Shown in pieces: positions 31,580 to 53,514 of a stretch of 64,000 nt of DNA. The translations under genes were made by a program, and so were the position numbers. The DNA comes from a virus. The notes beneath the pieces are model-generated. The model saw only the letters and a list, made by a program, of their open reading frames with translations. It had not been told where the DNA came from and did no database searches. Position 1 is the stretch's first letter. Every line of letters begins with the position of its first letter. The stretch covers positions 8,306 to 72,305 of the IMG/VR virus record IMGVR_UViG_3300032282_001105. One strand, 5' to 3'.

Positions 31580-31594
31580 AAGATAAATAAGTAA

Positions 31595-32364: not shown

Positions 32365-32396
32365 GATAAATAAAAGAGACCCCGGAGTAATTAAAC

Positions 32397-33953: not shown

Positions 33954-33962
33954 GGAAAAGAA

Positions 33963-34913: not shown

Positions 34914-34937
34914 TTTTTTGACATCTTGGTATCCATC

Positions 34938-34943
34938 TAAATA
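34938..34943 (+). promoter_or_regulatory. Late promoter motif TAAATA at the head of the modification island
   Basis: CTAAATA followed by AGGAG RBS and the ATG at 34961; same motif precedes the structural genes. Confidence 0.55.
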
Positions 34944-34960
34944 CTCTTAGGAGAACATAG

Positions 34961-36836: not shown

Positions 36837-37156
36837 TTATATGGGAACCAAAACCGTTAGAAAAGCCTGAATTTAGATTATATTATGATGATAAAGGTAA
36901 GGCACTTTTTTATAGTTGTGAAAAACCTGAAGGCAATTACATTGTTATTGATGCTACAACGTATGCAATTGGTAAACCCGATGTAAGAGTCATTGATGGA
37001 AAAATCTCAACAGTTACACCCGAAGCAGTTGTTTCAAAATTAATGCCAAGCGATGAAGGTGTTACCTGTACTGAAGAAGATATAAGTATAGTGGTTGATG
37101 ATAACTATACAGAAAAAACTATTAAATGGAAATTAACTACATATGAACTCGGATGA
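36824..37156 (+). CDS. Hypothetical protein
   Basis: 110-aa ORF overlapping both neighbours in the operon. Confidence 0.7.
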   Translation: MEHIIIWEPKPLEKPEFRLYYDDKGKALFYSCEKPEGNYIVIDATTYAIGKPDVRVIDGKISTVTPEAVVSKLMPSDEGVTCTEEDISIVVDDNYTEKTIKWKLTTYELG

Positions 37157-38096
37157 TATTATTGATGTAGCAGATTTAGATTGCATTTATCTAAGCTACG
37201 ATGAACCACAAAAAGAAGAATTCTGGCTTAAGATTAAACATATGGTGCCTTGGGCTAAACGTGTTGACAATGTTAAAGGTAGTGATGCCGCACACAAAGC
37301 CGCAGGTGAAGCTAGTGATACTGAACGCTTCATTCTAATCGATGGCGATAATATGCCAGATGAATCATTCTTTAATATTCAACTTGATTTTACAGATAAA
37401 GATGAGACATTCCGTAAAGCACAGTTTCGTTGGAAAGCAATTAACTCTATCAATGGATTACGCTATGGCAATGGTGGAATGAGTTCTTGGACAAAAACAT
37501 ATGTACGTGAAATGCAAACACACGAACATCAAACTGATGGTGATGAATCACGTATTGCTGATTTTTGCTTAGATAGCAAAGATAATTTGTATTGGGCAAT
37601 GTATAACTGTTATTCAACAACGTATCCCAATCATACACCATTTCAAGCTTGGCGTGCAGGTTTCCGCGAAGGTGTGAAGATGAGTTTGAATCGCGGTCTA
37701 CGTCCATCAGTAGATGAATTTAAAGAAACAGTAGCTACACGCAATCTAAACAATCTTACTGTTTGGCACAACATTGGGGCTGATGTTGAGAATGGTATGT
37801 GGGCTATATATGGTGCAAGACTTGGAACATATATGACTATGCTTACTGAATGGGATGTACATAATGTTCAATGGTTTGATAACTATATCACATTGTGGGA
37901 AGAACACGAACATAGAGATCCTGCAATTGAAGCCGAATTATTAGGCACAGCACTAAGCGATAAATTAGGTTTGCCTATGTGTATTCATAGCCCTGAACAA
38001 AGCAAATTCTTTAAGCGTCATTACAAGGCTGATTTTAAAAATAAAGATCCTCTTGTAACTGAAATGGATGTGATTCGTAGTATTGAGGGCTGGTGA
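37143..38096 (+). CDS. GT-A fold glycosyltransferase-like protein
   Basis: IYLSYDEP, AAHKAAG...FILIDGD (DxD), NGLRYGNGG, AWRAGFRE. Confidence 0.6.
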   Translation: MNSDDIIDVADLDCIYLSYDEPQKEEFWLKIKHMVPWAKRVDNVKGSDAAHKAAGEASDTERFILIDGDNMPDESFFNIQLDFTDKDETFRKAQFRWKAINSINGLRYGNGGMSSWTKTYVREMQTHEHQTDGDESRIADFCLDSKDNLYWAMYNCYSTTYPNHTPFQAWRAGFREGVKMSLNRGLRPSVDEFKETVATRNLNNLTVWHNIGADVENGMWAIYGARLGTYMTMLTEWDVHNVQWFDNYITLWEEHEHRDPAIEAELLGTALSDKLGLPMCIHSPEQSKFFKRHYKADFKNKDPLVTEMDVIRSIEGW

Positions 38097-38704
38097 TGGA
38101 ATGGTATACTCACCACTCGGACAAATATACTGAATGGAATTTATATTTAAATTCGATAGAGAAATATTTTAATGTATGTAAAGATAACACTGTTTTAGAA
38201 ATAGCACCGTTGTTTGGTACACATACTAATTTAATTAAACATCACGGTGCTAAACAAATTACATTTGTTGAAATAAATGACAATGCAGTAAATGCGGCAT
38301 TACCCAACACGCATCCAGATTGTGAACTAATTATAGGTGATATATTTTCATACTTGTCAACTCCTAAAAAATTTGACGTAGTTGTGTGTTGCGGATTACT
38401 TTATCATCTGCACTCTCCGTTATATCTATTAGAATTGATTGCAAATAACATAGCACCTAAATTTATTATGTTAGAAACTTTTCCTTATAATCACGAAAAG
38501 ATGCACCACGCTTTAGTAAAAATTGAAGAAAATGAATCGTTACCTGATTGGAAAACGTGTGGTATTAAACTTGGTTTGGATCAAGAAATTTTTATAATTG
38601 CTATGAAAAATTTAGGGTATAAGTTAATAACAAGTGATACTAATATTACTAAGCCATCAAATCCTGATGCTGATTTGTTTTTAGGAGTGTTTGAAAAAAT
38701 ATGA
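38096..38704 (+). CDS. Class I SAM-dependent methyltransferase
   Basis: VLEIAPLFG motif I, ITFVE, GDI, FDVVVCCGLLYHL. TGATG coupling. Confidence 0.8.
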   Translation: MEWYTHHSDKYTEWNLYLNSIEKYFNVCKDNTVLEIAPLFGTHTNLIKHHGAKQITFVEINDNAVNAALPNTHPDCELIIGDIFSYLSTPKKFDVVVCCGLLYHLHSPLYLLELIANNIAPKFIMLETFPYNHEKMHHALVKIEENESLPDWKTCGIKLGLDQEIFIIAMKNLGYKLITSDTNITKPSNPDADLFLGVFEKI

Positions 38705-40266
38705 GCGGAGAATACGACCAATTTGCTAGAGATATGCGTGACCGCTTGAATGCGGTCAGTCCATCTTTGTGTCTTGCTAAATGGCAACAGGTAAGTTTGC
38801 ATTTACCTAGCGGACTAACACAAAGTTGCTATCATCCACCGACACATAAAATTCCATTAGAATTATTAGAAAGTAAACCCAGTACATTACATAATACTCC
38901 TATTAAAATACAAGAACGTAAGGAGATGCTTGCAGGTAAACGTCCTAGTGGTTGTGCTTATTGTTGGAAAGTAGAAGATGCAAAAAGTGATGACCCAAAC
39001 GGTCATTTAAGTGATAGACATTATCGTAGTAGCGAATGGTGGAATGCCCCAACATTTGAAGAAGTAACACAAAACTCATTTGACTATGACGTAACACCTA
39101 GATATGTAGAAGTTAATTTCAATCAGGCCTGCAACTTCAAGTGTATGTATTGTAGCCCCCATCTTTCTACTAGTTGGGAAGAAGAAATTAAAAAACACGG
39201 TGGTTATCAATTAACCAATATGGTTCATAATAATATAGAAGCACTTGAAAAAAGTGGATTGATGCCACTTAAAGTAGCAAACAAAGACAATCCATATGTT
39301 GACGCTTTCTGGAAATGGTTCCCTGAAATCTATCGCAAACTACGTGTGTTTAGAATGACAGGTGGTGAACCACTTATGGACAAGAACACATTCAAAGTGT
39401 TAGATTACGTGAATGAAAATCCTCACGGTCAGCTTGAGTTATCCATCACAAGCAATATGTGCCCGCCCGATCAGAAGTTATTTGATAAGTTTGTTGAAAA
39501 AGTCAAAGCTATTGAAACATTACGCACATACGAAGATAAAGAAAACTTTAATGAATTCAGCGGCAATCATTGGTATGTAGATAAAGGATTCAAACACTTT
39601 TGGTTGTTTGTATCACTTGACGGATTTGGTGAACAAGCTGAATATATGCGTACTGGTTTAGAGTTTGACCGAATGTTAAACAATGTACGTACTTTCTTAC
39701 GTGAGACAAAATATTCTACTGTGAGCTTTATCAACACATTTAACATAATGTCTATACCAAGCTTACATAAATTTTTAGCTATGGTCTTAGAATTACGTGC
39801 AGAGTTTGGTGGAAGAAGTCAAGTTGAGTTTGAGATTGCACCCGATCAAACTGATACTGAAAAAGAAAATAACATTGTTCACAAAGTTTACAAACAAAAG
39901 AAGTTTCAACGTGTATTTTTTGACATTCCAATCTTACGATATCCGCCGTGGTTCAGTATACAGAACAGTGGACAATATGGCATTGATGAAGTAGAACGTT
40001 GTTTAAAATATATGGAAGACAATGTACAAGATGATGACTATTTGGAAACATTCGAGGGTTTTAAACCATATGAGATATTGAAAATTAAGCGAGACCTTGC
40101 TATAATGAAAGAATCTCTACCCCAAGAACAATTGTTACTAAATAAGAAGAACTTCTATATGTTTATTACTGAATATGATAGACGTAGACAAACGAATTTT
40201 ATGGAAACATTCCCCGAATTAAAAGGATATTGGAGAGAATGTATCAAAGCACATACCAAACATTAA
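38701..40266 (+). CDS. Radical SAM protein 1, N-terminal twitch/SPASM-like domain
   Basis: CNFKCMYC, TGGEP; N-terminal CLAKW..SCYH..CAYCW. Confidence 0.92.
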   Translation: MSGEYDQFARDMRDRLNAVSPSLCLAKWQQVSLHLPSGLTQSCYHPPTHKIPLELLESKPSTLHNTPIKIQERKEMLAGKRPSGCAYCWKVEDAKSDDPNGHLSDRHYRSSEWWNAPTFEEVTQNSFDYDVTPRYVEVNFNQACNFKCMYCSPHLSTSWEEEIKKHGGYQLTNMVHNNIEALEKSGLMPLKVANKDNPYVDAFWKWFPEIYRKLRVFRMTGGEPLMDKNTFKVLDYVNENPHGQLELSITSNMCPPDQKLFDKFVEKVKAIETLRTYEDKENFNEFSGNHWYVDKGFKHFWLFVSLDGFGEQAEYMRTGLEFDRMLNNVRTFLRETKYSTVSFINTFNIMSIPSLHKFLAMVLELRAEFGGRSQVEFEIAPDQTDTEKENNIVHKVYKQKKFQRVFFDIPILRYPPWFSIQNSGQYGIDEVERCLKYMEDNVQDDDYLETFEGFKPYEILKIKRDLAIMKESLPQEQLLLNKKNFYMFITEYDRRRQTNFMETFPELKGYWRECIKAHTKH

Positions 40267-40267
40267 A

Positions 40268-41722
40268 ATGTCATCAAAAAAATATAACGAATCTTTTTCA
40301 GAATACAAAGCAAGATTAATTGACCCAGTAAGTGAAAGCTTTTGTGCCGCTAAATGGCTCAATGCTACTATCTGGTTGGGTAATGGTCAAACAACAAGTT
40401 GTCATCATCCACCTGGCCATCAGATTAATGCAGCCGAATTAGCAACTAATCCTACAGCAATTCACAATACACAACATAAAAAACTTATGCGTGAGATGAT
40501 GCAAATTGGCAAGAGACCAAAAGAATGTGAATACTGTTGGAAAATTGAAGATATGGAACGCGGTGCAATGAGCGACCGTGTTTATAAAACTGCGGTATTT
40601 GATGAAGCTGATATTAACAAAGCGGCACATAGTGATTGGCAAGATAACACAATGTTAAAAACATTGGAGATCAGTTTTGACCGTACGTGCAATTTTGCTT
40701 GTAGTTATTGTAATCCAAGTTTTAGTACAACGTGGGTAAAAGATATTAACAAGTTTGGTCCCTACAAAAACCTCGAGGGTGATGCAAGAGACCATTTTAA
40801 TAATGCCGCCGAGTCTGCTAAGCCTATACCAGATGAACAGAATCCATATACACAGGCTTTTTGGAAGTGGTGGGAAATGCCAAATGGTTTAGCTGATAAC
40901 CTAGAAGAAATACGTATTACAGGTGGTGAGCCATTAATGGCACCAGGCGTATGGAAATTATTCGAATGGTTCAGAGACAATCAACAACGTGTAATGAATA
41001 GACCTGATGGTAAAGTTATGCGTTTTGCTATCAATACTAACTTAGTACCTAGCGATGAGATTATGGATAGACTTATACAACTAAGTCACTATGTGCCCCA
41101 TTTAGAAATCTATACTAGCTGTGAGAGTTTTGGCCAACACGCACAATATATTCGTGACGGATTTGATTGGAACAAATGGATTCACAATTTACAAAGACTT
41201 CATAAAGAAAGTAATGTGAAAAAGACACATATGATGATGACTGTTAACAGTCTATGTCTTGCTAGTATTGTGCCTTTTATGGATCAAATGATTACATTTA
41301 AACAATTATATGATTCAATGTTCCCTATAATGACACTTAACATTTTACGATTTCCTAGTTTTCAGAGTTGTGTAGTGTTACCGGATCACATTAGAGAAAA
41401 ATATAGAAATGAATTACAAATTTGGTTGAACAATCAGATACAAATGAATCTTCATAATAGTAAAGGTGAGCCTTTATTATTACAAATGGAACGTGAACAC
41501 GTGCAAAGATTGATTGATTATTTGGATGTAGTGAAAACACCACATAGATATATGTCAGATATTGAAGTAACACGTAGAGATTTTAAACAATTCTATCATC
41601 AATATGATATTCGTAGAGGTAAGAATTTTAGAGCAACTTTCCCTCCTGAGTTTGTGCAATTTTATGATAGTATAGATGCACAATTGTCCCCACCAGAACA
41701 AATACTATCCGGTATTAATTAA
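40268..41722 (+). CDS. Radical SAM protein 2
   Basis: CNFACSYC, TGGEP; CAAKW..SCHH..CEYCW. Confidence 0.92.
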   Translation: MSSKKYNESFSEYKARLIDPVSESFCAAKWLNATIWLGNGQTTSCHHPPGHQINAAELATNPTAIHNTQHKKLMREMMQIGKRPKECEYCWKIEDMERGAMSDRVYKTAVFDEADINKAAHSDWQDNTMLKTLEISFDRTCNFACSYCNPSFSTTWVKDINKFGPYKNLEGDARDHFNNAAESAKPIPDEQNPYTQAFWKWWEMPNGLADNLEEIRITGGEPLMAPGVWKLFEWFRDNQQRVMNRPDGKVMRFAINTNLVPSDEIMDRLIQLSHYVPHLEIYTSCESFGQHAQYIRDGFDWNKWIHNLQRLHKESNVKKTHMMMTVNSLCLASIVPFMDQMITFKQLYDSMFPIMTLNILRFPSFQSCVVLPDHIREKYRNELQIWLNNQIQMNLHNSKGEPLLLQMEREHVQRLIDYLDVVKTPHRYMSDIEVTRRDFKQFYHQYDIRRGKNFRATFPPEFVQFYDSIDAQLSPPEQILSGIN

Positions 41723-41734
41723 CAAGAGAAAATT

Positions 41735-43255
41735 ATGGCAAGAGATTATAGCAAAAAAGAAACATACAAAGAGTTTAAGATTAGAGTCATCGATGATGTA
41801 TCTAAAACATATTGTGGGGCTAAATGGTATAATGCTACCATATGGTTGGGACATGGGCAAACTACAAGTTGCCATCACCCACCGGCACACAAAATTGATA
41901 TTAAAGAGATTGAAACAAATCCTTCTGCTATTCATAATACCCCTCATAAAAAATTAATGCGTAAGTTAATGCAAGAGGGGGAACGCCCTAATGAGTGTGA
42001 ATACTGCTGGAAAGTAGAAGATATGAACCGAGACGCAGTTTCGGATCGTGTATTTAAAACTCATATCTATTCTGATGAAGATATCTATGCTAGTGCCAAG
42101 ATGCCGTGGAATGCTGATGTTGAATTAAAAACTTTAGAAATCAGTTTTGACCGTACGTGTAATTTTGCTTGCTCATACTGTAACCCTGCATTCAGTACTA
42201 GTTGGGTACGTGATATTAAAAAACACGGTTCTTACAAAAATATCTTGTCTGATGGCCGTGGTCACTTTATTGATACAGCACCTTGGGCGGCTAGTGCAGG
42301 TGAATCAGATGATGACAATCCATACATTCAAGCATTCTGGAAGTGGTGGAATAGTTCATTACAAGATAACTTAGAAGAAATTCGTATTACAGGTGGTGAG
42401 CCATTAATGGCTCCTTCTGTTTGGAAGCTGTTTGAATGGTTTAAAGATAATCCAGAGAAGGCTAAAAAATTACGATTTGCAGTTAATAGTAATTTAGTTC
42501 CTAAGAAAGAAATTTTAGATAAACTAATTGAGATGAGTCATTTTGTACCACACTTAGAGATTTATACGAGTGGTGAAGCAAAAGGCCCACATAGCGAATA
42601 CATACGTGATGGTATGGAATATAAACAATGGTGGGAAAATCTACATAGATTACATACTGAGGGTAATATTCATTCTACACATATGATGATGACTATCAAT
42701 AGTTTGTGTCTTGCTAGTATTACTGAATTTATGGATGACGTATTAGAATTCAAACGTACACATAACACACGTAGTCCAACTATGAGTTTAAATATTTTAC
42801 GTTTCCCTAGTTTCCAAAGTTGTGCTATCTTACCAGATAGTATGAAACAGCATTATAAAGAAAAATTGCAAGCTTGGTATGATGAACAGTTAGCAAAAGA
42901 TGAACGTGTTAACATTGGTTGGATGGCTCCTATTCTTACAGAGGGTGAAAAGAATCAAATTGAACGTTTGATTGAATATCTTGATGTAGTTAAAACACCT
43001 CATCGTAATACAGCAGAACAACCTAAGTTATATAATGACTTCAGGGCATTCTATGAACAGTATGATGAACGTAGAGGTAAAAACTTTAGAGCTACATTCC
43101 CTCAAGATTATGTTGATTTCATTAATAGTTGTGAAATTATTGGCGGTGATAGTATTCGAGGCGAAGATCCTGCAACAACAGAAGCTGGTTATGTGAGTGA
43201 TGAAGTAGCACACGGTTGGGATGTTGATAACGACAGTTTGGGAAAAAATGTTTAA
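41735..43255 (+). CDS. Radical SAM protein 3 (close paralogue of protein 2)
   Basis: CNFACSYC, TGGEP; CGAKW..SCHH..CEYCW. Confidence 0.92.
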   Translation: MARDYSKKETYKEFKIRVIDDVSKTYCGAKWYNATIWLGHGQTTSCHHPPAHKIDIKEIETNPSAIHNTPHKKLMRKLMQEGERPNECEYCWKVEDMNRDAVSDRVFKTHIYSDEDIYASAKMPWNADVELKTLEISFDRTCNFACSYCNPAFSTSWVRDIKKHGSYKNILSDGRGHFIDTAPWAASAGESDDDNPYIQAFWKWWNSSLQDNLEEIRITGGEPLMAPSVWKLFEWFKDNPEKAKKLRFAVNSNLVPKKEILDKLIEMSHFVPHLEIYTSGEAKGPHSEYIRDGMEYKQWWENLHRLHTEGNIHSTHMMMTINSLCLASITEFMDDVLEFKRTHNTRSPTMSLNILRFPSFQSCAILPDSMKQHYKEKLQAWYDEQLAKDERVNIGWMAPILTEGEKNQIERLIEYLDVVKTPHRNTAEQPKLYNDFRAFYEQYDERRGKNFRATFPQDYVDFINSCEIIGGDSIRGEDPATTEAGYVSDEVAHGWDVDNDSLGKNV

Positions 43256-44469
43256 TGGATAGTACTACATATTGTCCTATGCCATGGATGCATTTGCACG
43301 TTTCTGTAACAGGAGGTGTGCAACCTTGCTGTATTGGGAAACAAATAGGAGATATACAAAAAAATAGTTTAGAAGATATTTGGAATAATGATGAGATGAA
43401 AGATATTCGTCTAAAGATGTTAAACAATGAAAAACCTAAACAATGTTCTGAATGCTATAATCGTGAAGATTTAGGCTCTGCGTCACTTAGAATAACCTCA
43501 ATACATAACTACGCAAATTTAGTTGACCCTATCAATGACACACAAGCTGATGGATCATTAACAGAAATGAAATTACGTTATGTTGATTTTAGATTCAATA
43601 ATCTTTGTAATTTTAAATGTAGAATTTGTAACCCAGTGTACAGTTCAAACATAGGCTCAGAAATAGTAAACTTTCACAAAATAGATTTAATAAACGTTGT
43701 CAATAAGAATGGTCCAATCCTATATGAGGAAATGAAAAAGCAATATGATAATGTTAAAAAGATATATTTTGCAGGTGGCGAACCTATTATGCAACGGGAA
43801 CATTTTCAAGTACTAAAAGATTTAATTGAAAGCGATAGAGCAAAAGACATTGAATTGATTTATAGCACTAATGGGAGTAGATTTAAAAATGGTTTGGGCA
43901 ATATGTTTGAATATTGGTCTCATTTTAAAAAAGTAGAAATAGTATTCTCATTAGATGGATATGGTTCTGCCGCAGAATATTGGCGTTCGGGCACAAATTG
44001 GGAAGAAGTAGAAGAAAATATAAAACATACAAAAAACTATCCTAATATTGTAGTAAAAGTCAATAGCGTAATAGGTTGGCCTAATATTTTTAATTGGATT
44101 AATTTTATAAAATATGCGTTAGAGACAGAGTTAATTGACGATCTTTTAAGTGCAATTGAAGTTATCCCTATTAATGATCCATATTGTTATGCACTAAGCG
44201 GTGTTCCTGAATTTAAGAAAAAAGAAATTATCAATGAATTAGAAAAATTTAAATATTACGTATGGGCATTTGCTTCACGTGTAAAATATACAAAACCCGC
44301 AGATTTATTAATGTGCATAGATGTTTTAATTAAAAGTGTAAACATTTCTGATACGCCATTTATAAAAAAACATTTCATAGTAAAAAATACAAAACTAGAT
44401 ACTTGGAGGGGTGAAGATTTCTTTACCGCATTTCCAGAACACGAAGATATGAGACCTTATATAACATGA
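43255..44469 (+). CDS. Radical SAM protein 4
   Basis: CNFKCRIC, AGGEP; CPMPW..PCC..CSEC. Confidence 0.92.
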   Translation: MDSTTYCPMPWMHLHVSVTGGVQPCCIGKQIGDIQKNSLEDIWNNDEMKDIRLKMLNNEKPKQCSECYNREDLGSASLRITSIHNYANLVDPINDTQADGSLTEMKLRYVDFRFNNLCNFKCRICNPVYSSNIGSEIVNFHKIDLINVVNKNGPILYEEMKKQYDNVKKIYFAGGEPIMQREHFQVLKDLIESDRAKDIELIYSTNGSRFKNGLGNMFEYWSHFKKVEIVFSLDGYGSAAEYWRSGTNWEEVEENIKHTKNYPNIVVKVNSVIGWPNIFNWINFIKYALETELIDDLLSAIEVIPINDPYCYALSGVPEFKKKEIINELEKFKYYVWAFASRVKYTKPADLLMCIDVLIKSVNISDTPFIKKHFIVKNTKLDTWRGEDFFTAFPEHEDMRPYIT

Positions 44470-45848
44470 ATAAAATAGTACCTATATGGGAACACGGACG
44501 AATTAGTCCAGATAGTCCTAATAAAGTTTTCTGTATGGCTCCTTGGACACATACTTACATATCACCTCAATCTGAACGTAGAATGTGTTGTGCTTCACGT
44601 GAGGAACATAGCTTTCAAAAGCAATATATTGATAGTAGCAATGATTCAAAGTATGGAGCTGTTACTGAGAGTAAAACAGCATTAGATGATTATAATCCAG
44701 TTTCATTAAAAGAACATTGGAATAGTGATTATATGAAAAATATACGCCGCAAATTAATGGCTGGTGAAGAAATACCACAATGTGATGTATGTAACAAAGA
44801 CTTGTTAAGTCAAAGTTCATATCGTCAGTGGTTTACTGGTAATTTGTTTATGGATAAGATACAAGAGGCATTCGATAAAACAGATGATACTGGACATACA
44901 ACTATGGAAGCAATCAGTTTTGATTATCGTTTCAGTAATCTATGTAATTTTAAATGTCGTATGTGCGGTGAACAATTAAGTTCTACTTGGGAAACTGAGA
45001 AAAAGATTAACAATCTTTGGAGCCCAAAGAATCAATCATTTATGATTCCAGAAATTAAATCTGCTATGCAAACATTCCAAGATGAAGTCGTAGAGCCTGA
45101 ATTCCGTGATGCGATTAGTCGTGGTATAGTAGAAGAATGCTATTGGGTAGGCGGTGAACCGTTAATGTACGATGTTCATTGGTGGGCATTAGAAGAAATG
45201 CTAAAGAACGGGTCAGCAAAAGATTGTTATATGCGTTATAATAGCAATTTAAGTCGTGTACAGTTCGGTCAAAAAAATCTATACGACTATCTACCTCACT
45301 TTAAAGATTGGTTAATGTGTGCAAGTATTGATGGCACGGGTAAGATAGGTGAATATATTCGTACAGGTTTAAAATGGGATCAATGGTTAGAAAATTTTAA
45401 ACAGGGACTTGAGTTACCGGGCGGTCATGATAAAATGATGATTGACTTGACCATCACAGGTCCGGGTATGTTCAGTCTTAAAGATTTGTTTGACTTAAGT
45501 CAGGAACTTGATGTACGTATTGAAACTAAGATTATGTTTGCCTTTCACGCAGATATAATGTTTACTGCAATGGCTTGGCCAAGACATATATTAAATAATA
45601 TAATTGATGATTTGCTAGCGTATATGGAGCCAAAAGCAACACGTAAACAAGAAACATTAATTAACACACTAAAGTCTATGAAAACTAGACAAAATCACGA
45701 AGAAGCGTTTCCAGAAACATATAAAACGGCTGCATTGAATGGTAAAAATTGGCTAAAAAGATTGGAGATCATTCGCAAAGATACATATACTATTGAAGAT
45801 ATATATTCTGAAAATAAAGAACTAATAACATGGTGGAACAACATATGA
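44466..45848 (+). CDS. Radical SAM protein 5
   Basis: CNFKCRMC, VGGEP; CMAPW..MCC..CDVC. Confidence 0.92.
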   Translation: MNKIVPIWEHGRISPDSPNKVFCMAPWTHTYISPQSERRMCCASREEHSFQKQYIDSSNDSKYGAVTESKTALDDYNPVSLKEHWNSDYMKNIRRKLMAGEEIPQCDVCNKDLLSQSSYRQWFTGNLFMDKIQEAFDKTDDTGHTTMEAISFDYRFSNLCNFKCRMCGEQLSSTWETEKKINNLWSPKNQSFMIPEIKSAMQTFQDEVVEPEFRDAISRGIVEECYWVGGEPLMYDVHWWALEEMLKNGSAKDCYMRYNSNLSRVQFGQKNLYDYLPHFKDWLMCASIDGTGKIGEYIRTGLKWDQWLENFKQGLELPGGHDKMMIDLTITGPGMFSLKDLFDLSQELDVRIETKIMFAFHADIMFTAMAWPRHILNNIIDDLLAYMEPKATRKQETLINTLKSMKTRQNHEEAFPETYKTAALNGKNWLKRLEIIRKDTYTIEDIYSENKELITWWNNI

Positions 45849-47107
45849 ACGAAACTAAAAAGGTATTTCCTATTAATACCGCAACTGCTTGTCAATACAA
45901 ATGGACTTGGAGTACAATCTATCTATCGCAGGGACAAACTAATAGTTGTCACCGAGTTGGTGGCGGGCATTTAGACGCTTGGAACTTTAAGAACTTTCAT
46001 AACTTGCCCGAAAAAATACGTGATAGAAAATTGATGTTAGAGGGTAAATGGCCTGATAATGAATGTAACTATTGTAAACGTATTGAAGACGCGGGTGGAC
46101 TAAGTGAACGTAACGGATACATTAATACGTTGGATATGGTTCCACCTGAATTGGATACTGATCCGACAGCAGTTGAAGTTACTCCTCGTATTTTAGAGAT
46201 TTACTTTAGTAACTTGTGTAATCAGTCTTGTGTCTACTGTTCACCTATGTTCAGTTCTGTAATTGAGAATGAGTTACGTAAACACGGCCCGTTAAGCAAA
46301 CGTTATTTCTTAGATGGTACTTGGGAACAAAATCCTTTATATGAACAGTGGAAGCGTGAGTTCTGGGAATGGATGCACGAAAACTCAACACACTTATATG
46401 ATTTCCAAGTACTTGGTGGTGAGCCAATGTTCCAACCAGAGTTTCAAGAGTGTTTAGACTTTTTTGAAGAAACAGAAAATCCTAACTTGAATTGGAAAAT
46501 GTTTAGTAATTTAAAACACGACCATGAACAGTTTAAAGTAAAAATCAACAAGATGGCTTCATTAATTCAACGTAAGAAAATGAAACGTATTGAAATTGTT
46601 GCTAGTATTGATTGCTGGGGAGATGAACAAGAATACGCTAGAAATGGTATGAGTTTAGCTAATTGGGAAAAGAACTTTAACTACTTGTTAGAAGTACCTG
46701 AAATTAGTATATTCATTCAATCTACTATCTCTCCTATTACTGCACCTACTGCATATCAATTAGTAGATAAAGTAATTGAGTGGAATAAGAAAAAACAAAT
46801 TCATCAAGGTTGGAATGTTGTCGCTAACCCTCCATTCTTAGATCCAAGTGTGTTTGGTCATTACTTGACAGACTATATGGACAAGTTAGCAGAATCAGCA
46901 CAGTCATTGAAACGTCCGCATTTCCCTGACATTAGTTATTTGGATGGATTCGTAACTCAAATTAAGAGTGCACCGGTTAACCTTGAAATGATGCGTGAGT
47001 TAAGAGATTACTTAGATGGTCTTGATGCACGTAGAAATCAAAATTGGCGTAGTATCTATCCTTGGATGGATGAGATTATGACTAAAGAATTGGGACCTAA
47101 AGAATGA
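45845..47107 (+). CDS. Radical SAM protein 6
   Basis: CNQSCVYC, LGGEP; CQYKW..SCHR..CNYC. Start placed at the ATGA overlap (45845). Confidence 0.92.
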   Translation: MNETKKVFPINTATACQYKWTWSTIYLSQGQTNSCHRVGGGHLDAWNFKNFHNLPEKIRDRKLMLEGKWPDNECNYCKRIEDAGGLSERNGYINTLDMVPPELDTDPTAVEVTPRILEIYFSNLCNQSCVYCSPMFSSVIENELRKHGPLSKRYFLDGTWEQNPLYEQWKREFWEWMHENSTHLYDFQVLGGEPMFQPEFQECLDFFEETENPNLNWKMFSNLKHDHEQFKVKINKMASLIQRKKMKRIEIVASIDCWGDEQEYARNGMSLANWEKNFNYLLEVPEISIFIQSTISPITAPTAYQLVDKVIEWNKKKQIHQGWNVVANPPFLDPSVFGHYLTDYMDKLAESAQSLKRPHFPDISYLDGFVTQIKSAPVNLEMMRELRDYLDGLDARRNQNWRSIYPWMDEIMTKELGPKE

Positions 47108-48294
47108 GTACATACTGCTCACTTCCTTGGATACACTTAGCAACGCACCCTCACGGGGGTGCGACTCTTTGCTGTGTAAGTGACCATAGAAATGCGGCAA
47201 GTAGTGCAAGAAATTTTGAACCATTACGTTACTTAGATGTAAATTCATCTACGATTGACAACATAATGAATAGTGATTACTTTAAGCAAACCAGATTGGA
47301 AATGCTGAATAATCAAGTTCCGCACGCCTGCCAACGTTGTTTTACTGAAGAATCAAATGGTGTACGCAGTAAGCGAGTAGAAGAAAATGAAAGACTAGGT
47401 TTTACTGAAGATATGGCACGTGCTATTACACGAAGTGATGGTACTATTCCTGTTAATTTTAAATTTGTTGAGTTACGTTTGGGTAACCTGTGTAATCTTA
47501 AATGTAGAACCTGTAACCCAATGAGTAGTACTAATTGGATTCAGCCATATCAAAAACTACAAGAAGAATTAAAGTTTGTTACTCACTATGATAGAAAGAT
47601 TAACAGTTCTTGGACAGAGAGTGATGAATTCTGGGATGACTTATTTCAACATAGCGAAGATTTACAGTTAATATATGTTAACGGTGGTGAACCTACATTG
47701 GTTGAAAAGCATTGGAAATATTTAGAAGAACTTATTAAACGTGGGTTAAACAAGCAAATTACCTTATGGTATAATATCAATATGACTAACTTGCCTGACG
47801 ATCTTATTGAATTGTGGAAACAATTTAAAAAAGTTCAGGTTACTTGTAGTATAGATGATTTGGGTGAACGCAATGATTATATTCGTGCAGGATCTGAATG
47901 GGATACTATAATTAATAACTTAGATAAGATACAGTCTTATCCTTGGATTGAAGCTAGCGTATGTCAAACAGTAAGTTGGATGAATGTTTATTATATCAAT
48001 GATTTTATAAAATATATGCGTTCACGCAACCTGCACGTACATTTAAATTATGTATACGATCCGGAGTTTTTATCACTTAAAGCATTGCCTGTACATTTGA
48101 AACAAATTGTATTAGATAGATGTACTGATTTAAACGAGTGGGAATTGAACAGCTTGCGTAGTCAATTTATTGACCAACCTGATATGACAGTATTTCGTCA
48201 AGGTGTTGAATATAACAATTGGTTAGACAATAACAATCGCACTTCATTTGCTAAAGTGTTTCCAGAATGGTATGAAATACTTAAAGGCGTTTAA
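47104..48294 (+). CDS. Radical SAM protein 7
   Basis: CNLKCRTC, NGGEP; CSLPW..LCC..CQRC. Confidence 0.92.
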   Translation: MSTYCSLPWIHLATHPHGGATLCCVSDHRNAASSARNFEPLRYLDVNSSTIDNIMNSDYFKQTRLEMLNNQVPHACQRCFTEESNGVRSKRVEENERLGFTEDMARAITRSDGTIPVNFKFVELRLGNLCNLKCRTCNPMSSTNWIQPYQKLQEELKFVTHYDRKINSSWTESDEFWDDLFQHSEDLQLIYVNGGEPTLVEKHWKYLEELIKRGLNKQITLWYNINMTNLPDDLIELWKQFKKVQVTCSIDDLGERNDYIRAGSEWDTIINNLDKIQSYPWIEASVCQTVSWMNVYYINDFIKYMRSRNLHVHLNYVYDPEFLSLKALPVHLKQIVLDRCTDLNEWELNSLRSQFIDQPDMTVFRQGVEYNNWLDNNNRTSFAKVFPEWYEILKGV

Positions 48295-49458
48295 ATGGAT
48301 TTAACTAGATTTAAAGAGTGCCCTGCAATAAAAAATTCAGTATATGTAGATAATCAAAGCAAGGTAGCACCTTGCTGTTATTTTAAATCTAAACTACCAA
48401 TTGAAGTGTTAAGTGATTGGAACAACTACCAAACTGAGCTTGCAAAAATTGATATAGAGACAGGTTGTGAGCATTGCATTAAATTAGAAAATTCCGGAGT
48501 AGAAGAATCACATCGCAATCGTTTTGTGCATAGATATAAAAGTGTTCTTAAGAAAGATGAGCTAGAAATATCTATCAGTGTAGATAATGTATGCAATCTT
48601 AAATGCACTACTTGCAATCCTATTAATAGTTCTTTATGGCTGGGTGACGCTATAAAATTAAACAGTTTAAACCCTAATTATAATTTAGATCAATTTTTAT
48701 CAGGGTTTAAAGATGGGAACTTTAAGTTAGATATTTGTAAAAAGATAATTGAGTCATACGAAAAAGATATTACGGTTATTCTATATGGTGGAGAACCCAC
48801 AATCAATAACGCCGTCATTGACTTTTTAGAGTGGTTGACAGAATTACCTAATGCACATTTAATATCAATAACGTTTATAACAAATGGCACTACTGTTCCT
48901 AAAAATATTGAAAATTATATTAATAAATTTAAAATGATTGATATAAATTTAAGTCTTGATTCAATAAACGAAAGAAGCGATTTTTTGCGTTTCCGTAGTC
49001 AATGGAAAGAACTTGAACAGAACGCAATAGTTTATGATTTATTAGCTTTAAAGTATAAAAATTTTGAATATAGGATACATCTTACTTTATCATTGTTAAA
49101 CGTTTATTATTTTTATGAATTTTGTAATTGGGTAAATAATACTTTAAACAACGTTGAAGTTATATTTACAAAGTTAATTGGACCTAGACACCTGTCTTTA
49201 GATTTATTGAATCCAAAACAAAAACAAATAGTGATAAATCATAATTTAAACTTACTTAATAAAATTGAATCTAAGGGTTTACAAAATATCAACCAGACAA
49301 TTAAAAATTATGAACAAATGGTAGAAACTTACATAGCTGATGTATATAAAGATGGATTAACACCAACTTTAGATTTTTTAACTAACTTAGATGATATCCG
49401 ATCTACTGCTTATAAAGTAACATTTCCTGAGATAGTAGAAATTTTAAATAATGAATAA
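48295..49458 (+). CDS. Radical SAM protein 8 (divergent, very AT-rich)
   Basis: CNLKCTTC, YGGEP; CPAI..PCC..CEHC. Confidence 0.9.
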   Translation: MDLTRFKECPAIKNSVYVDNQSKVAPCCYFKSKLPIEVLSDWNNYQTELAKIDIETGCEHCIKLENSGVEESHRNRFVHRYKSVLKKDELEISISVDNVCNLKCTTCNPINSSLWLGDAIKLNSLNPNYNLDQFLSGFKDGNFKLDICKKIIESYEKDITVILYGGEPTINNAVIDFLEWLTELPNAHLISITFITNGTTVPKNIENYINKFKMIDINLSLDSINERSDFLRFRSQWKELEQNAIVYDLLALKYKNFEYRIHLTLSLLNVYYFYEFCNWVNNTLNNVEVIFTKLIGPRHLSLDLLNPKQKQIVINHNLNLLNKIESKGLQNINQTIKNYEQMVETYIADVYKDGLTPTLDFLTNLDDIRSTAYKVTFPEIVEILNNE

Positions 49459-50689
49459 GAAACTGTTACAAGACCTTAGAAATCAAACAAGTCAAACATT
49501 ATGTTTGGCTAAATTCCACGAATCTACTATATGGTTATACGAAAGTAAGATTGCAAGTTGCCATCATACACCTTTTCTGTTAACAGGCAATGATACATTA
49601 ACATTTTATAATCCTGAAGGTAGACGACAGCAACAGTATTCTATGCTTAAGGGTAATAAACCAGATGAATGCAACTATTGCTGGAAACTTGAAGCACAAG
49701 ATGTTGTTAGTGATAGAGAAAAGAAATCCCTAGCATTTAACTCATCATTAACAGCAGAACAATATTTAGATAAGACATATCCATTTAAACCCAAAGCACT
49801 TGAGCTTGCATTCCAGAACACGTGTAATTTAGCTTGTAGTTACTGTAGCCCTAGTTTTAGTACTGAATGGGAGAATGATATACGCTTGAAGGGCAACTAT
49901 GAGAATATCACTACTGATAAAAAGATGCATTACCAGCGCGGTATTGATAATCGCACTCCGGTAGATATGACATTGTTTTGGGAGTGGTTCAATGATATTG
50001 CTCCTGAGTTAGAAAGTATACGTATCACAGGTGGCGAGCCACTATTACACGAAGATACATTTGCTACATTTGCTAAAATGATTGAGGTTAATCCTAATGT
50101 AGAATGTGTTGTGCATACAAATATGTGTCAGAAGCCATTGGTGGTACAACGTTTTATTGATGGTATCTCTAAGTTAAACAACGTAAGACTCAACATAAGT
50201 AATGAAAGTGCAGGAGAGGTCGCAGAGTTTATACGTGATGGTATGGTATATAGTGATTGGCTTAGAAACGTAACTGAAGTAGCTAAAACAAAAGCTACTA
50301 TGAGTATAAGCACTACAATAACACCTATATCATTACTAGCACTAGACCAATTATATTTGGATATTATTGATATACGCAAACAAACAGGTAAGAAAGTAGA
50401 TATCTCAATTAACTTTGCTACATACCCTGAGTTTCAAAGCTTGGCTGCTTTGTCAAGTGAAGAACGTGCTTTCTATTTAAACAAGTATACTAAGTTTTTT
50501 GAATCTATTGATTCATTGTTATTAGATAGTGAACGACATTCTGTTCCTAGATTTTTAACAATGTTAGATCCTAAATTAACACATACAGACAACTTAGCAT
50601 ATAGAAAAGACTCTGACAGTTTTTTTAAACAATATGTAATTAGAAGAAACAAGTCAATCAATTTTGCAGAACAGATTGGAACAAGATGA
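49451..50689 (+). CDS. Radical SAM protein 9
   Basis: CNLACSYC, TGGEP; CLAKF..SCHH..CNYCW. Confidence 0.92.
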   Translation: MNKKLLQDLRNQTSQTLCLAKFHESTIWLYESKIASCHHTPFLLTGNDTLTFYNPEGRRQQQYSMLKGNKPDECNYCWKLEAQDVVSDREKKSLAFNSSLTAEQYLDKTYPFKPKALELAFQNTCNLACSYCSPSFSTEWENDIRLKGNYENITTDKKMHYQRGIDNRTPVDMTLFWEWFNDIAPELESIRITGGEPLLHEDTFATFAKMIEVNPNVECVVHTNMCQKPLVVQRFIDGISKLNNVRLNISNESAGEVAEFIRDGMVYSDWLRNVTEVAKTKATMSISTTITPISLLALDQLYLDIIDIRKQTGKKVDISINFATYPEFQSLAALSSEERAFYLNKYTKFFESIDSLLLDSERHSVPRFLTMLDPKLTHTDNLAYRKDSDSFFKQYVIRRNKSINFAEQIGTR

Positions 50690-51861
50690 AAGACGCACCA
50701 AAGAATTTATGTAGTCTATTATGGACAGGGTTTAGCAATGAACCTGATGGTCGTGTTCAACCTTGTTGTCTATATAAAGGATACATTGAAGAAGATGGAA
50801 AGCCAATGTATGTACAAACACATTCAGTAGATGAAATATTTCATAGTAAATATATGAAAAACTTGCGTACACAGTTTAGAAATAATGAGCGTCCTGCAGG
50901 ATGTAGCACGTGTTGGACTGACGAAGATAACAACTATGACAGTAAACGTGTAATATATAACACCAAGATACATCATAATTTTGGTATTAATTGGACAATT
51001 GAGCCAGTTGAAATAACAGAGTTTCAACTTATCATTAGCAATAGTTGTAATTTAAAGTGTCGCAGTTGCACACCAAGCCATAGTAGTCAATGGCAACAAG
51101 AAATGAAAATGTTAACTGGGTCTACTGGTTACGAAATGCCACACGGACAGTCAGCAGAAGAAGCCGGTAAATTATGGTTAGATAGACATCGTTGGTACAA
51201 GAATCTAAAACGTTTAGAAGTTGTAGGTGGAGAACCATTCTATGTTAAACAATGGCATACTATGTTCAATGAGTTAATTGATTTGGGTTATAGTAAAAAC
51301 ATTGATATTACATTAACAACTAATTGTACACTATTCTTTCCTGAGTTGATAACTAGAATAGCTGAAAATTTTAAATCAGTTTCGATTGGTTTGAGTATAG
51401 ATGGCATAGGATCAACGTATGAATATATGAGACATTTGGGTAAATGGCCAATCGTGTATGATAATATGAAAAAATATCACGAATTGACTGATAGAATTAA
51501 TATTCAGTTAAACCTGACTATTAGTTGGCTGAATGTATTAGAAGTACCGGAGTTACACGAATTGATTAGTAATGAATTCCCTAAATTTAAAATATGGAAC
51601 AATCTTGTACATTATCCTCAGCATCTTTGTGTATGGGCAATACCTGAAGAATTAAAGAAAGCAGTATCGGATAAGTGGGATAAATATCAATGGAAAAACG
51701 AGTATAAAGATACTATGCAAGGTGTATTAAATTATATGAATAGCAAATCAACTACAAATGAAGAATTCAAAAAGAATTTAAAAATAATTTATAAGACCGA
51801 TGAATTTAGAAAAGAAAACATCACACAATCTATACCAGCACTACAGGAATTTTTAAAGTGA
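50686..51861 (+). CDS. Radical SAM protein 10
   Basis: CNLKCRSC, VGGEP; CSLLW..PCC..CSTCW. Confidence 0.92.
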   Translation: MKDAPKNLCSLLWTGFSNEPDGRVQPCCLYKGYIEEDGKPMYVQTHSVDEIFHSKYMKNLRTQFRNNERPAGCSTCWTDEDNNYDSKRVIYNTKIHHNFGINWTIEPVEITEFQLIISNSCNLKCRSCTPSHSSQWQQEMKMLTGSTGYEMPHGQSAEEAGKLWLDRHRWYKNLKRLEVVGGEPFYVKQWHTMFNELIDLGYSKNIDITLTTNCTLFFPELITRIAENFKSVSIGLSIDGIGSTYEYMRHLGKWPIVYDNMKKYHELTDRINIQLNLTISWLNVLEVPELHELISNEFPKFKIWNNLVHYPQHLCVWAIPEELKKAVSDKWDKYQWKNEYKDTMQGVLNYMNSKSTTNEEFKKNLKIIYKTDEFRKENITQSIPALQEFLK

Positions 51862-52580
51862 AGAATATTTTAGTTTTAGGAGATAGTTTTTCATATGGTC
51901 AGGGTTGTTCAGACAGACCCACAACACGTGACGCAATAAGGGAAATAACACCTAGTGAATATTGCTGGCCATCTTTATTACGTAATGAATTGGATCCAAA
52001 AGAATACAGAGTAATTAATTTGAGTAAAACCGGAAACTCATTACCGGGTATATTTTTAGATTTAATTCACTATGATGCCCATCATTCAAGTACAGACCCT
52101 GTAAACTTAATTATATTTTCAGTCACTTCATTTGATAGACTATTAGTGGCAGACTCTGTAAAGCCGGATCTTACTACTAATTGGGTATTGAGTCAGGAAT
52201 TTGAACTGAATGTTATATCAAAAGAATATGAAAACGCTAAACTTAGTTTTTTAAAATATTTATGGAATGATTCGTTATTATCTTTAAATGCAATAGTATA
52301 CATTCACGCATTTTTTAGTTATGCAAAACTAAAAAATATTAAATGTTTATGGAGTACACCTGATAAACCAAATTTATATGGACAGGATAATTGGGTAGAC
52401 TTTGTAAATGATTACTTTTTCGAACACCTATATAATTATGATTTTTCAGGAGAATACAATGATGCGTTTAATAAAACGTGTATTGTAGAAGATGGTCACC
52501 CTAATAATTTAGGACATCAATTGTACTATGAAAAAATAGTAAGACCTAAGATAATAAATTATATAAAGGAAAATCTATGA
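51858..52580 (+). CDS. SGNH/GDSL hydrolase-like protein
   Basis: ILVLGDSFSYG (block I), NLSKTGNS, DGHPN (block V). GTG start overlapping the upstream stop. Confidence 0.75.
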   Translation: MKNILVLGDSFSYGQGCSDRPTTRDAIREITPSEYCWPSLLRNELDPKEYRVINLSKTGNSLPGIFLDLIHYDAHHSSTDPVNLIIFSVTSFDRLLVADSVKPDLTTNWVLSQEFELNVISKEYENAKLSFLKYLWNDSLLSLNAIVYIHAFFSYAKLKNIKCLWSTPDKPNLYGQDNWVDFVNDYFFEHLYNYDFSGEYNDAFNKTCIVEDGHPNNLGHQLYYEKIVRPKIINYIKENL

Positions 52581-52584
52581 TTAA

Positions 52585-53514
52585 TTGGATAAAAAATTTA
52601 TACTACAAAATAAAAATGGAAATTCGTTATCGCAAACGATTAAAAGAAATGAAAAAACGAGATCCATTCATATACAAATGAACGAAAATTTTGCTAAATT
52701 AAATCTATTAAAATCATCTTCTATAGAAGATGTTAAACATTATTCTACAACCAATACTTCTACTGTAGGATTACCGGTAGGAGAAATAACGCAATTTTTA
52801 TATTACAGCCCCGGTGATATACAATATGCACATACTTGGGAATATGAACAATTTGATTATATGATAAATCATTTAGGTTTTAGAAATACTGAAATACCCA
52901 AAGAAACAGATATTGCAGTATTTGGTTGTAGCTTCACGTTTGGTTTAGGTTTACCTATAGAGATGATATGGCATACTATACTAGCAGACAGATTGAATAC
53001 AAAGGTTGCTAATTATGGTGTTCCTGGAGCATCGATTAAGACAATAACTGATTTAGCAATGATAATAAGTAATCATACTAAAATTAATAAAGCTATTTTT
53101 CTTTTACCTACATATAGTAGAATGCAAGTAGCAAAAACTAGCCCGTTTGAAGATGAGGTGAATTATCTTTCAATAATACCTAATCATAAATCAGAGTTAT
53201 GTAAGAAATATGAAATAGAAGCAGAGTTATTAGTAAAATCTACTCCGGATGAAGAGATGTTTAAAGTGTTGAGAGATAGTGTATATTTGGTAGACCATAT
53301 TTTTAAAGAGAGAAACATTAAAACGTATTTCTCATCCTGGGATCCTGATACATATGAATTTTTAACATATATGGATTTGCAGGGTGTTTTGTTACCTGAT
53401 TGGACTAGTAAGGGAATGCAACAAGCAACTACTGATTTGGCCAGAGACAAATTACATCCGGGTCCAGTCCACCAACAACAGTTTGTAGACAAAATCATAG
53501 ATTATATCAAATGA
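52585..53514 (+). CDS. SGNH-like protein
   Basis: VFGCSFTFG, NYGVPGAS, DKLHPG. Start codon uncertain (TTG). Confidence 0.65.
   Translation: MDKKFILQNKNGNSLSQTIKRNEKTRSIHIQMNENFAKLNLLKSSSIEDVKHYSTTNTSTVGLPVGEITQFLYYSPGDIQYAHTWEYEQFDYMINHLGFRNTEIPKETDIAVFGCSFTFGLGLPIEMIWHTILADRLNTKVANYGVPGASIKTITDLAMIISNHTKINKAIFLLPTYSRMQVAKTSPFEDEVNYLSIIPNHKSELCKKYEIEAELLVKSTPDEEMFKVLRDSVYLVDHIFKERNIKTYFSSWDPDTYEFLTYMDLQGVLLPDWTSKGMQQATTDLARDKLHPGPVHQQQFVDKIIDYIK

Follow-up and report, generated by a model that had tools for sequence, protein, structure and literature searches.

Ten consecutive N-terminal twitch radical SAM genes in a block of putative glycan-tailoring genes of an uncultured phage

BtrN and BlsE are twitch-type radical S-adenosylmethionine (SAM) enzymes acting on sugar-like substrates, and the auxiliary cluster of BtrN serves in electron transfer. 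A canonical twitch domain lies C-terminal to the radical SAM core, and a SPASM domain is made of seven or eight cysteines holding two auxiliary clusters. Grell et al. are said to have defined the twitch domain in 2015 by three to four cysteines around a beta-hairpin, which bind one auxiliary cluster. Here we describe ten consecutive genes of a further family, NCBIfam NF033640 (N_Twi_rSAM, twitch domain-containing radical SAM protein), in a 64,000-nucleotide stretch of viral DNA, which is called the window in the following and comprises bases 8306-72305 of a 72.3-kb linear IMG/VR virus record (IMGVR_UViG_3300032282_001105; CheckV completeness 17%). NF033640 has no assigned reaction, and our literature search found no paper on the function or architecture of the N_Twi_rSAM family.

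Genes for soluble GT-A-like glycosyltransferases (GT) beside structural genes, as predicted here, recall the virus-encoded, cytoplasmic virion glycosylation of chlorovirus PBCV-1, mimivirus and mycobacteriophage. Radical SAM enzymes are not known to take part in the virion glycosylation of chloroviruses, mimiviruses or mycobacteriophages. The host recognition cluster of pelagimyophages is described as a large variable island in the structural region with tail fibres, GT8 genes and radical SAM cassettes differing between close genomes (Zaragoza-Solas 2020, PMC7029224). Papers on pelagimyophages and on a T4-like environmental genome mention radical SAM genes in passing and give no family, architecture or function (PMC7029224, PMC5332604). 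Unlike the pelagimyophages, the phage studied here is nearer to Rak2-like jumbo phages and comes with freshwater labels. As a system, the locus is a variant of twitch radical SAM sugar enzymes combined with virus-encoded glycosylation, for which there is no characterised precedent.

Because the array shares an operon-like block with sugar-transferring and tailoring genes behind fibre genes, the editing of a sugar decoration appears to be its most likely role. We assign a probability of roughly 50% to the reading that the enzymes carry out radical tailoring of a phage-made glycan, with a sugar as the substrate and probably with virion proteins as the carrier.

Family membership and architecture of the ten enzymes

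The array (38701-51861) consists of ten consecutive + strand open reading frames (ORFs) of 387-521 aa, separated by intergenic gaps of -19 to +12 nt:

38701..40266, +, gene 1: N_Twi radical SAM, clade A, type 1, 521 aa; NF033640 286.8 bits
40268..41722, +, gene 2: N_Twi radical SAM, clade A, type 2/3, 484 aa; NF033640 295.8 bits
41735..43255, +, gene 3: N_Twi radical SAM, clade A, type 2/3, 506 aa; NF033640 306.0 bits
43255..44469, +, gene 4: N_Twi radical SAM, clade B, 404 aa; NF033640 356.0 bits
44466..45848, +, gene 5: N_Twi radical SAM, own clade, 460 aa; NF033640 316.1 bits
45830..47107, +, gene 6: N_Twi radical SAM, clade A, rare type, 425 aa; NF033640 229.9 bits
47104..48294, +, gene 7: N_Twi radical SAM, clade B, 396 aa; NF033640 356.6 bits
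48295..49458, +, gene 8: N_Twi radical SAM, clade B, rare type, 387 aa; NF033640 190.8 bits (lowest of ten)
49451..50689, +, gene 9: N_Twi radical SAM, clade A, rare type, 412 aa; NF033640 232.6 bits
50686..51861, +, gene 10: N_Twi radical SAM, clade B, 391 aa; NF033640 306.1 bits

All ten proteins scored above the curated cut-off of NF033640 (170 bits; model length 398 positions), with 190.8-356.6 bits and E-values of 4e-56 to 1.8e-106, and the matches ran end to end, starting at model positions 1-5 and ending at 387-397. Four N-terminal cysteines are invariant in alignment A1 (C24, C43, C85 and C88 in gene-1 numbering), as are the CxxxCxxC motif (C144/C148/C151) and the GGEP motif (G221-G222-E223-P224). 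The ten genes are thus plain members of the family, from which no sequence difference sets them apart. Genes 1, 2, 3, 6 and 9 carry the subtype A motif C.xK[WF]...SC[HY][HR]...CxYC, and genes 4, 5, 7, 8 and 10 the subtype B motif (CC, CxxC), with a fifth, adjacent auxiliary cysteine in clade B. The general radical SAM profile PF04055 exceeded its own cut-off (29.5 bits) in seven of the ten proteins, stayed below it in genes 1 and 5 and gave no match in gene 6.

The Pfam SPASM profile PF13186 aligned N-terminally above its cut-off in genes 4, 5, 7 and 10. In gene 4 it covered residues 7-68 (52.5 bits), ahead of the core at residues ~106-370; the module is therefore not in the canonical C-terminal twitch position, and its N-terminal placement is the permutation catalogued by NF033640. 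The twitch domain of BtrN also aligned weakly to the N-terminal module (profile positions 17-86, E 0.004). Instead of the seven or eight cysteines of a SPASM domain, there are four invariant auxiliary ones, with no further conserved cysteines in alignments A1, A5 and A6, and for this reason we regard the module as twitch-like and expect a single auxiliary cluster. Each enzyme should therefore bind a SAM-cleaving [4Fe-4S] cluster at CxxxCxxC and one predicted auxiliary [4Fe-4S] cluster at the N-terminal four-cysteine module.

A preliminary description of the window had listed ten consecutive radical SAM genes at this place, all with intact CxxxCxxC and GGEP motifs and with auxiliary cysteines ahead of the core, and these statements were borne out. 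It also ascribed a C-terminal (L/Y)DxxR-like motif to all of them, which is imperfect in three cases (gene 7 lacks the R, gene 9 has V and gene 5 has E in place of D) and otherwise present. Of the proposed inverted twitch/SPASM architecture, the twitch part and the inversion are real, but SPASM has to be dropped and the inversion is not new, being already curated as NF033640. Both proposed subtypes are recognisable from their motifs and as clades A and B of the tree described below, except that gene 5 belongs to a clade of its own. The scenario named there as fatal to the idea, that all ten genes fall into one characterised family with a housekeeping role, came true by half: they do fall into one family, but this has no known role.

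In an AlphaFold2 (AF2) model of gene 4 (predicted local distance difference test, pLDDT, 94.2), strands 13-16 and 21-23 lie between C7 and C25, and a helix starts at C64/C67. The nearest folds to its core were those of BlsE (Z 13.0, root-mean-square deviation 4.0, 219 residues aligned), CteB and anSME (12.7 each), viperin, SkfB and SuiB (11.9 each) and EpeE (11.8). No close relative of the model was found among solved structures, and neither profile nor fold searches of the PDB returned a solved structure of the NF033640 family. BtrN and BlsE resemble the array enzymes in combining the SAM cluster with one auxiliary cluster and in their sugar contexts; they differ in carrying the auxiliary module after the core instead of before it, at identities of 16-18% and a Z of 5.7 for the BtrN core. 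Because BlsE, the peptide enzymes and viperin are equally near, the fold alone does not separate sugar, peptide and nucleotide substrates.

Two competing explanations start from these folds. The peptide-acting maturases CteB, anSME, SkfB, SuiB and EpeE share the common core (Z 11.8-12.7) and tie with BlsE as nearest folds, and PF13186 matches the N-terminal module in 4/10 genes. The array might accordingly modify the upstream fibre-like or structural proteins directly (by epimerisation, cross-linking or oxidation), with the glycosyltransferases acting in parallel, which we consider unlikely. The array enzymes differ from these maturases by their 4-5 auxiliary cysteines (one cluster, not two) and the permuted domain order; Pfam and NCBIfam (E <=0.01) gave no RRE/PqqD-type domain for any of the ten proteins, and no obvious short precursor peptide ORF was seen near the array, where small ORFs were not searched systematically. 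The second explanation, by which some or all of the enzymes would act on nucleotides or phage DNA, in viperin-like chemistry or base hypermodification, appears very improbable. Its basis is the place of viperin among the nearest folds and a series of matches to prokaryotic viperin (NF038283), listed for seven of the ten genes at 17-43 bits (best 43.4 bits, gene 4) and thus far below the cut-off of 180.

Paralogue history and selection

The tree was calculated from 266 full-length family members of the window and 77 IMG/VR loci, with ORFs of at least 340 aa and at least 150 bits against the A1 profile being admitted. Genes 1, 2, 3, 6 and 9 formed clade A (support 0.90), genes 4, 7, 8 and 10 clade B (0.96), and gene 5 fell into a separate long-branch clade of 24 tips (support 1.0) that is not clearly within B. 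Pairwise identities among the ten proteins are 20-34%, except for 59% between genes 2 and 3. Because of these low identities and because each type has its own orthologue clade in other phages, the array did not arise by a recent burst in situ. Judged from these sequences, it is an old, maintained collection of paralogues, with genes 2/3 as the sole younger duplication, which settles a choice between duplication and collection that the preliminary description had posed.

The same description had named relaxed selection as an observation that would speak against its idea. The ratios of non-synonymous to synonymous substitution rates (dN/dS) against the orthologues of locus L006 were 0.08-0.22 in the five measurable gene pairs, indicating purifying selection. 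Against the nearest relative, L001, dS was saturated and dN amounted to 0.10-0.37 in eight gene pairs. Genes 4 and 8 fell outside this analysis, since none of the three loci used for comparison has an orthologue of them that reaches 45% identity.

Of the 78 loci, 38 carried type 2/3, 28 type 4, 28 type 10, 24 type 5 and 12 type 7, and the rare types 9, 6 and 8 were found in four, three and two loci, respectively; type 1 was present in 78/78 by construction of the search. Type 1 was followed by type 2/3 in 37 loci, and after these came variable sets of types 4, 5, 10 and 7. The window carries all nine types, the fullest set among the 78 loci, and in L001 the order is 1-2/3-5-6-7-4-9-10.

Contigs from sequencing run X2 of a different study bridge the junctions between the upstream methyltransferase gene and gene 1 and those of genes 1/2, 3/4, 5/6 and 6/7, with 0-26 differences. 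Joints with a short side were disregarded as probably stemming from paralogues or other organisms. No X2 contig covers ~48020-51024 (genes 8-10), a gap that is not readable as absence or as a cassette swap. A megablast search of the array against 50,697 phage records gave no match.

The gene block and its conserved module

The array is part of a co-directional block of 26 proteins (31744-62443) with gaps of -59 to +47 nt, which lies behind baseplate genes, begins with a 206-aa protein and ends with a C-methyltransferase. Outside the ten array genes, it contains:

first in block, +: 206-aa protein
32397..33953, +: fibre-like virion protein, 518 aa; phrog_14394 virion structural, E 1.8e-9; 23% Ser+Thr
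33963..34913, +: Ser/Thr-rich (28%) 316-aa protein, putative acceptor; cluster 3, conserved
34961..35266, +: 101-aa conserved protein; cluster 4
35263..36066, +: GT8-like (glycogenin-like) glycosyltransferase paralogue 1; cluster 2, profile A3
36063..36836, +: GT8-like glycosyltransferase paralogue 2; cluster 2, profile A3
between the GT8-like pair and the 317-aa protein, +: 110-aa protein
37143..38096, +: 317-aa protein with N-terminal GT-A-like fold and helical C-terminal half; AF2 pLDDT 86.6; cluster 1
38093..38704, +: SAM-dependent methyltransferase, 203 aa; Pfam Methyltransf_25/23/11
51858..52580, +: SGNH/GDSL-like protein (weak), N-terminal GDSFSYG block; Lipase_GDSL E 0.012, below cut-off
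52585..53514, +: SGNH/GDSL-like protein (weak); Lipase_GDSL E 0.018, below cut-off
53511..55007, +: NodU/CmcH-type carbamoyltransferase; Carbam_trans_C 161.5 bits, Carbam_trans_N 113.2 bits
between the carbamoyltransferase and the 1567-aa ORF, +: 208-aa protein
55666..60369, +: 1567-aa protein with C-terminal GT-A-like domain copy; A2 on residues 1341-1505, E 4e-20
60370..61269, +: NAD-dependent sugar epimerase/dehydratase; Epimerase 59.1 bits, GDP_Man_Dehyd 30.1 bits
61211..62443, +: C-methyltransferase of nucleoside diphosphate (NDP)-hexose type; Methyltransf_14 98.6 bits, Methyltransf_13 50.4 bits

The Methyltransf_13/14 domains of the last protein are presumably the mark of NDP-ketohexose C-methyltransferases. 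In the 317-aa protein directly upstream of the methyltransferase, residues ~3-166 matched B4GALNT1 (Z 9.6, best in VIA), a Leptospira glycosyltransferase (Z 9.0), SunS and STIV A197, as well as the viral proteins PBCV-1 A64R (Z 7.0) and mimivirus R699 (7.4) and R655 (6.9); its DGD motif is conserved, with D67 and D69 invariant in A2. A complex prediction of this protein with gene 1, made for the orthologues of gene 1, scored 0.02 against a mark of 0.32 and speaks neither for nor against binding. Profile A3 of the GT8-like pair (~260 aa each) matched glycogenin-1 with an E of 3.4e-7 over positions 15-107 only.

The 518-aa fibre-like protein gave a weak match to the Peptidase_G2 intramolecular chaperone (21.9 bits; cut-off 25) and has two GVQFTAT-x-GTG-x-GTAY motifs ~60 residues apart in a body rich in Ser, Thr, Gly, Ala and Asn. 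The first 1300 residues of the 1567-aa protein have no Pfam family and recur in few loci only. No family was obtained from Pfam, NCBIfam or PHROGs for 33963-34913, 34961-35266, 36824-37156, 55007-55633 and most of the 1567-aa ORF and of a 5717-aa ORF described below; the 316-aa protein (33963-34913) had no PDB match either, and PDB profile searches with A2, A4 and A7 returned nothing usable.

In IMG/VR, there were at least 667 pattern matches, and 78 loci kept among the matches listed were compared with the window (79 loci in total). At least two copies of the radical SAM gene within ±10 kb were found in 65 of the 78 loci kept, and one locus has nine. Counted over all 79 loci, the most conserved neighbour is the GT-A-like protein (65), followed by the GT8-like proteins (54), the Ser/Thr-rich protein of cluster 3 (48), the small 101-aa protein of cluster 4 (47), the fibre-like protein (39) and the carbamoyltransferase (22). 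That the most conserved neighbour has a GT-A-like fold argues against direct protein modification, whereas the position of the array directly after Ser/Thr-rich fibre-like proteins would suit it.

The cultured Ralstonia phage RsoM2USA (343.8 kb) contains a minimal module with a single type-1 radical SAM gene (E 5.5e-102 to A1). The gene order is Ser/Thr-rich protein (cluster 3), small protein (cluster 4), two GT8-like proteins, GT-A-like protein, radical SAM, GT-A-like protein and methyltransferase-like protein, all of them annotated as hypothetical. There the module is situated within the structural region, and its neighbours include virion proteins that mass spectrometry, covering the ten most abundant bands only, has confirmed (PMC8504454). 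The 518-aa and 206-aa proteins of the window had been considered as homologues of RsoM2USA ORF359 and ORF356, an assignment that was given up after sequence comparison showed no homology.

This position within the virion structural region, in the window and in RsoM2USA, counts against a third explanation, namely that the enzymes remodel a surface glycan of the host (lipopolysaccharide O-chain or capsule) in the course of infection, for instance as a means of shutting out competing phages. Such remodelling would agree with the GT8-rich host recognition clusters of pelagimyophages, which include radical SAM cassettes and whose transferases are read as O-chain modifiers (PMC7029224), and with bacterial family members located beside GT2/GT4 genes and a Wzx-type Polysacc_synt gene. 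However, none of the 26 block proteins has a convincing transmembrane segment, and no flippase, polymerase or lipid-carrier transferase was found among them, so that we regard host glycan remodelling as quite unlikely.

In five complete or near-complete related genomes (337-457 kb, two with terminal repeats), the number of matches over the cut-off was 11, 10, 1, 7 and 15, where a single frame split into halves accounts for two of the 15; the copies are spread over several loci. A profile search of 1.84 billion representatives yielded 7,656 proteins (50%-identity cluster representatives) at E <=1e-30. The nearest Atlas clusters are 93-100% viral, and in BFVD at least 19 structural matches, all from uncultured phages, extended over the full length. 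Two proteins of Vibrio phage K566 exceed the NF033640 cut-off, and the 'MoaA/nifB/pqqE family protein' of Vibrio phage KVP40 is a distant structural relative (TM 0.59/0.71, BFVD). Among bacteria, proteins over the cut-off occurred in 4/401 and 3/401 sampled genomes of two phyla, including the seed genome in each case, and in 0/14 control genomes; a genome-contig search with P0076 returned only two short contigs of metagenome-assembled genomes. Where present, the bacterial members are again in tandem arrays: a trio adjoins two GT2 and two GT4 genes, a second array is accompanied by a methyltransferase-GT2 fusion, and a third by a B12 radical SAM, a methyltransferase, a polysaccharide deacetylase, a carbamoyltransferase and a GDSL protein.

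Fusion proteins were surveyed among the 149 best representatives, 51 of which have at least 560 aa; most of these are tandem radical SAM-radical SAM proteins and 11 are single-module fusions. In P0206 a glycosyltransferase precedes the radical SAM module, in P0152 a GT2 domain follows it, and in P0178 it is preceded by the GT-A-like domain of the 317-aa neighbour (E 2e-35; 57-60% identity to cluster 1). These three fusions to glycosyltransferase or GT-A-like domains are a further point against direct protein modification, in favour of which stand the fusions to TPR repeats and to a partial Peptidase_S8. The latter match precedes the radical SAM module in P0180, as a GNAT domain does in P0231; the remaining six single-module fusions have unrecognised extensions. 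About 35 of the best 150 representatives (P0121-P0148) contain two or three full N_Twi modules, joined by TPR repeats in P0132 and P0136; these are putative fusions and perhaps read-through gene calls.

The phage cassettes also include two radical SAM families of canonical layout, cluster 7 in 25 loci and cluster 15 in nine, with CxxxCxxC near the N-terminus and a cysteine-rich C-terminal part (e.g., L008:12907-14184 and L020:15729-16727). As they share cassettes with the N_Twi genes, permuted and canonical twitch/SPASM-type enzymes are mixed in these phages. Cluster 6 (~395 aa, 28 loci, alignment A7) has a conserved E...F-x-TEK...P motif, which we take to resemble that of GT10-type fucosyltransferases; a PDB profile search with it was negative.

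Proposed tailoring of glycans and the phage that carries it

If the enzymes, which by sequence are soluble proteins, act on glycans, the transferases would build the glycan in the cytoplasm of the infected cell, most probably on the Ser/Thr-rich virion fibre proteins. Each radical SAM paralogue would then use a 5'-deoxyadenosyl radical for abstraction at one specific C-H of a sugar, either within the glycan or in an NDP-sugar, while the auxiliary cluster, being fully ligated by cysteines, would take or return an electron. The product may be a keto-sugar, an epimer, a deoxy-sugar or a rearranged sugar, which the remaining methyl-, carbamoyl- and acyl-handling enzymes, the NDP-sugar epimerase and the C-methyltransferase would decorate further. 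A conserved core of type 1 and the GT-A-like protein, followed by type 2/3, is extended in the window by the common types 4, 5, 7 and 10 and the rare types 6, 8 and 9. The preliminary description envisaged a diversified array, each enzyme of which would act on a different sugar position or protein target; the sugar-handling surroundings and the old, diverged paralogues agree with a tailoring array as such.

Several points weigh against glycan tailoring. Substrate and product are both inferred, from genes and context alone, and we infer the virion as the destination of the glycan from gene position only and less certainly than the sugar substrate. The sugar-acting BlsE and the peptide-acting enzymes are tied within Z 1 as neighbours of the gene 4 core. 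The GT8 call is weak, as it depends on one match of 93 positions and Pfam and NCBIfam reported no family for the pair, and so is the GT-A call (Z 9.6-7.0, with nucleotidyltransferases also matching; Foldseek E ~1e-3). Pfam did not recognise a sugar nucleotidyltransferase in the block.

Three further points of this kind come from the surroundings of other family members. The complete relative G404 (342.6 kb) has single copies beside nucleotide-metabolism and replication genes, namely a PolyA_pol/HD/NT5C fusion with a DNA polymerase B, a dNMP kinase, and a nucleoside phosphorylase with a HIT protein. These would suit nucleotide or DNA chemistry; set against this, the ten genes of the array sit with transferases and fibre genes and not with nucleotide metabolism, and gene order is weak evidence in mosaic jumbo genomes. 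A second cluster of G404, away from the fibre module (L093, G404:C1:91000-110999), includes two Asp/Asn beta-hydroxylases, as might be expected for protein modification. It also contains three N_Twi members and four further radical SAM ORFs, along with an aminotransferase-like protein and a protein of 624 aa that has a GT-A-like domain. Protein modification is likewise favoured by the bacterial locus L088 (G082:C2:1208500-1228499), in which two N_Twi genes are accompanied by five PhyH genes, a WelO5-like halogenase and a fibre-like secreted protein. This 842-aa protein is of the Peptidase_S74/T9SS-tail kind, and a methyltransferase, two B12 radical SAMs and a GDSL protein are present as well. 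From its gene content, L088 looks like a tailoring cluster for the secreted fibre-like protein or a natural product as much as for a glycan.

The window contains T4-type modules, i.e. an SbcCD-like nuclease, a late sigma factor, a gp5-like hub, gp25 and a gp6-like baseplate wedge, the last with 33-34% identity to the wedges of Rak2-like jumbo phages (345-358 kb). Near-identical DNA was found in 20 sequencing runs of eight studies labelled as freshwater, lake water or plankton metagenomes. Because of the T4-type modules, the Rak2-like wedge and the freshwater labels, we read the window as a fragment of an uncultured freshwater jumbo myovirus; a marine origin, assumed from the literature, was dropped in view of the freshwater and lake labels. 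Directly after the wedge gene follows a single 5717-aa ORF (14426-31579, +) with one weak FG-GAP repeat (25 bits) as the only Pfam match; its place is that taken by the >288-kDa structural protein ORF361 in RsoM2USA and by the VrlC-type giants in pelagimyophages. The T4 late-promoter word TATAAATA is strongly depleted in the window (2 copies vs. 15.1 expected, standard deviation 3.8); one copy lies just upstream of the gp25 gene (10506-10513), and neither is inside the array. In 31000-50900, sigma-70-like sites (80 vs. 88.4 expected) and terminator-like sites (15 vs. 8.1 expected) were not clearly enriched, and transcription signals are not claimable. An eleventh radical SAM-like ORF is located on the same record outside the window (G000:C1:5646-6053, -); it belongs to a different radical SAM family, as its NF033640 match covers the core only (32 bits).

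Ten such enzymes had been expected to place a heavy Fe-S demand on the host. An A-type Fe-S carrier is encoded in 5/5 complete related jumbo genomes and IscU in 2/4, in line with a T4-like environmental genome that has 12 radical SAM genes together with Fe-S carrier genes (Nishimura et al. 2017, PMC5332604). The expectation is supported by these carriers in relatives, but the 72-kb fragment itself has no Fe-S carrier genes. The idea that carrier genes track the radical SAM copy number was abandoned, because the one-copy genome G406 has two A-type carriers, and hence there is no dose relation.

Beyond glycan tailoring as such, each paralogue might catalyse a different undescribed reaction on a fibre glycan or on the glycan-protein linkage, in a cassette-swappable radical editing of the receptor-binding surface. 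Gain and loss of cassettes (1 to ~15 per genome) would then retune the host range or evade recognition. We regard this extended version as doubtful; if true, it would amount to a large set of new radical SAM chemistries on glycoconjugates, most of them virus-encoded.

What this analysis contributes is the minimal module of RsoM2USA, the fusion proteins and the analysis of type order. Jumbo phages carry up to ten or more Fe-S enzymes, along with their own Fe-S carriers, in an apparent surface-decoration module. Tractable entry points are the Ralstonia phage RsoM2USA with its minimal module and the Vibrio phages K566 and KVP40. Understanding the system would open up new radical chemistry, be it on sugars or on proteins, would put to the test whether tailed-phage fibres are decorated with edited glycans and would provide a marker for host-range variation.

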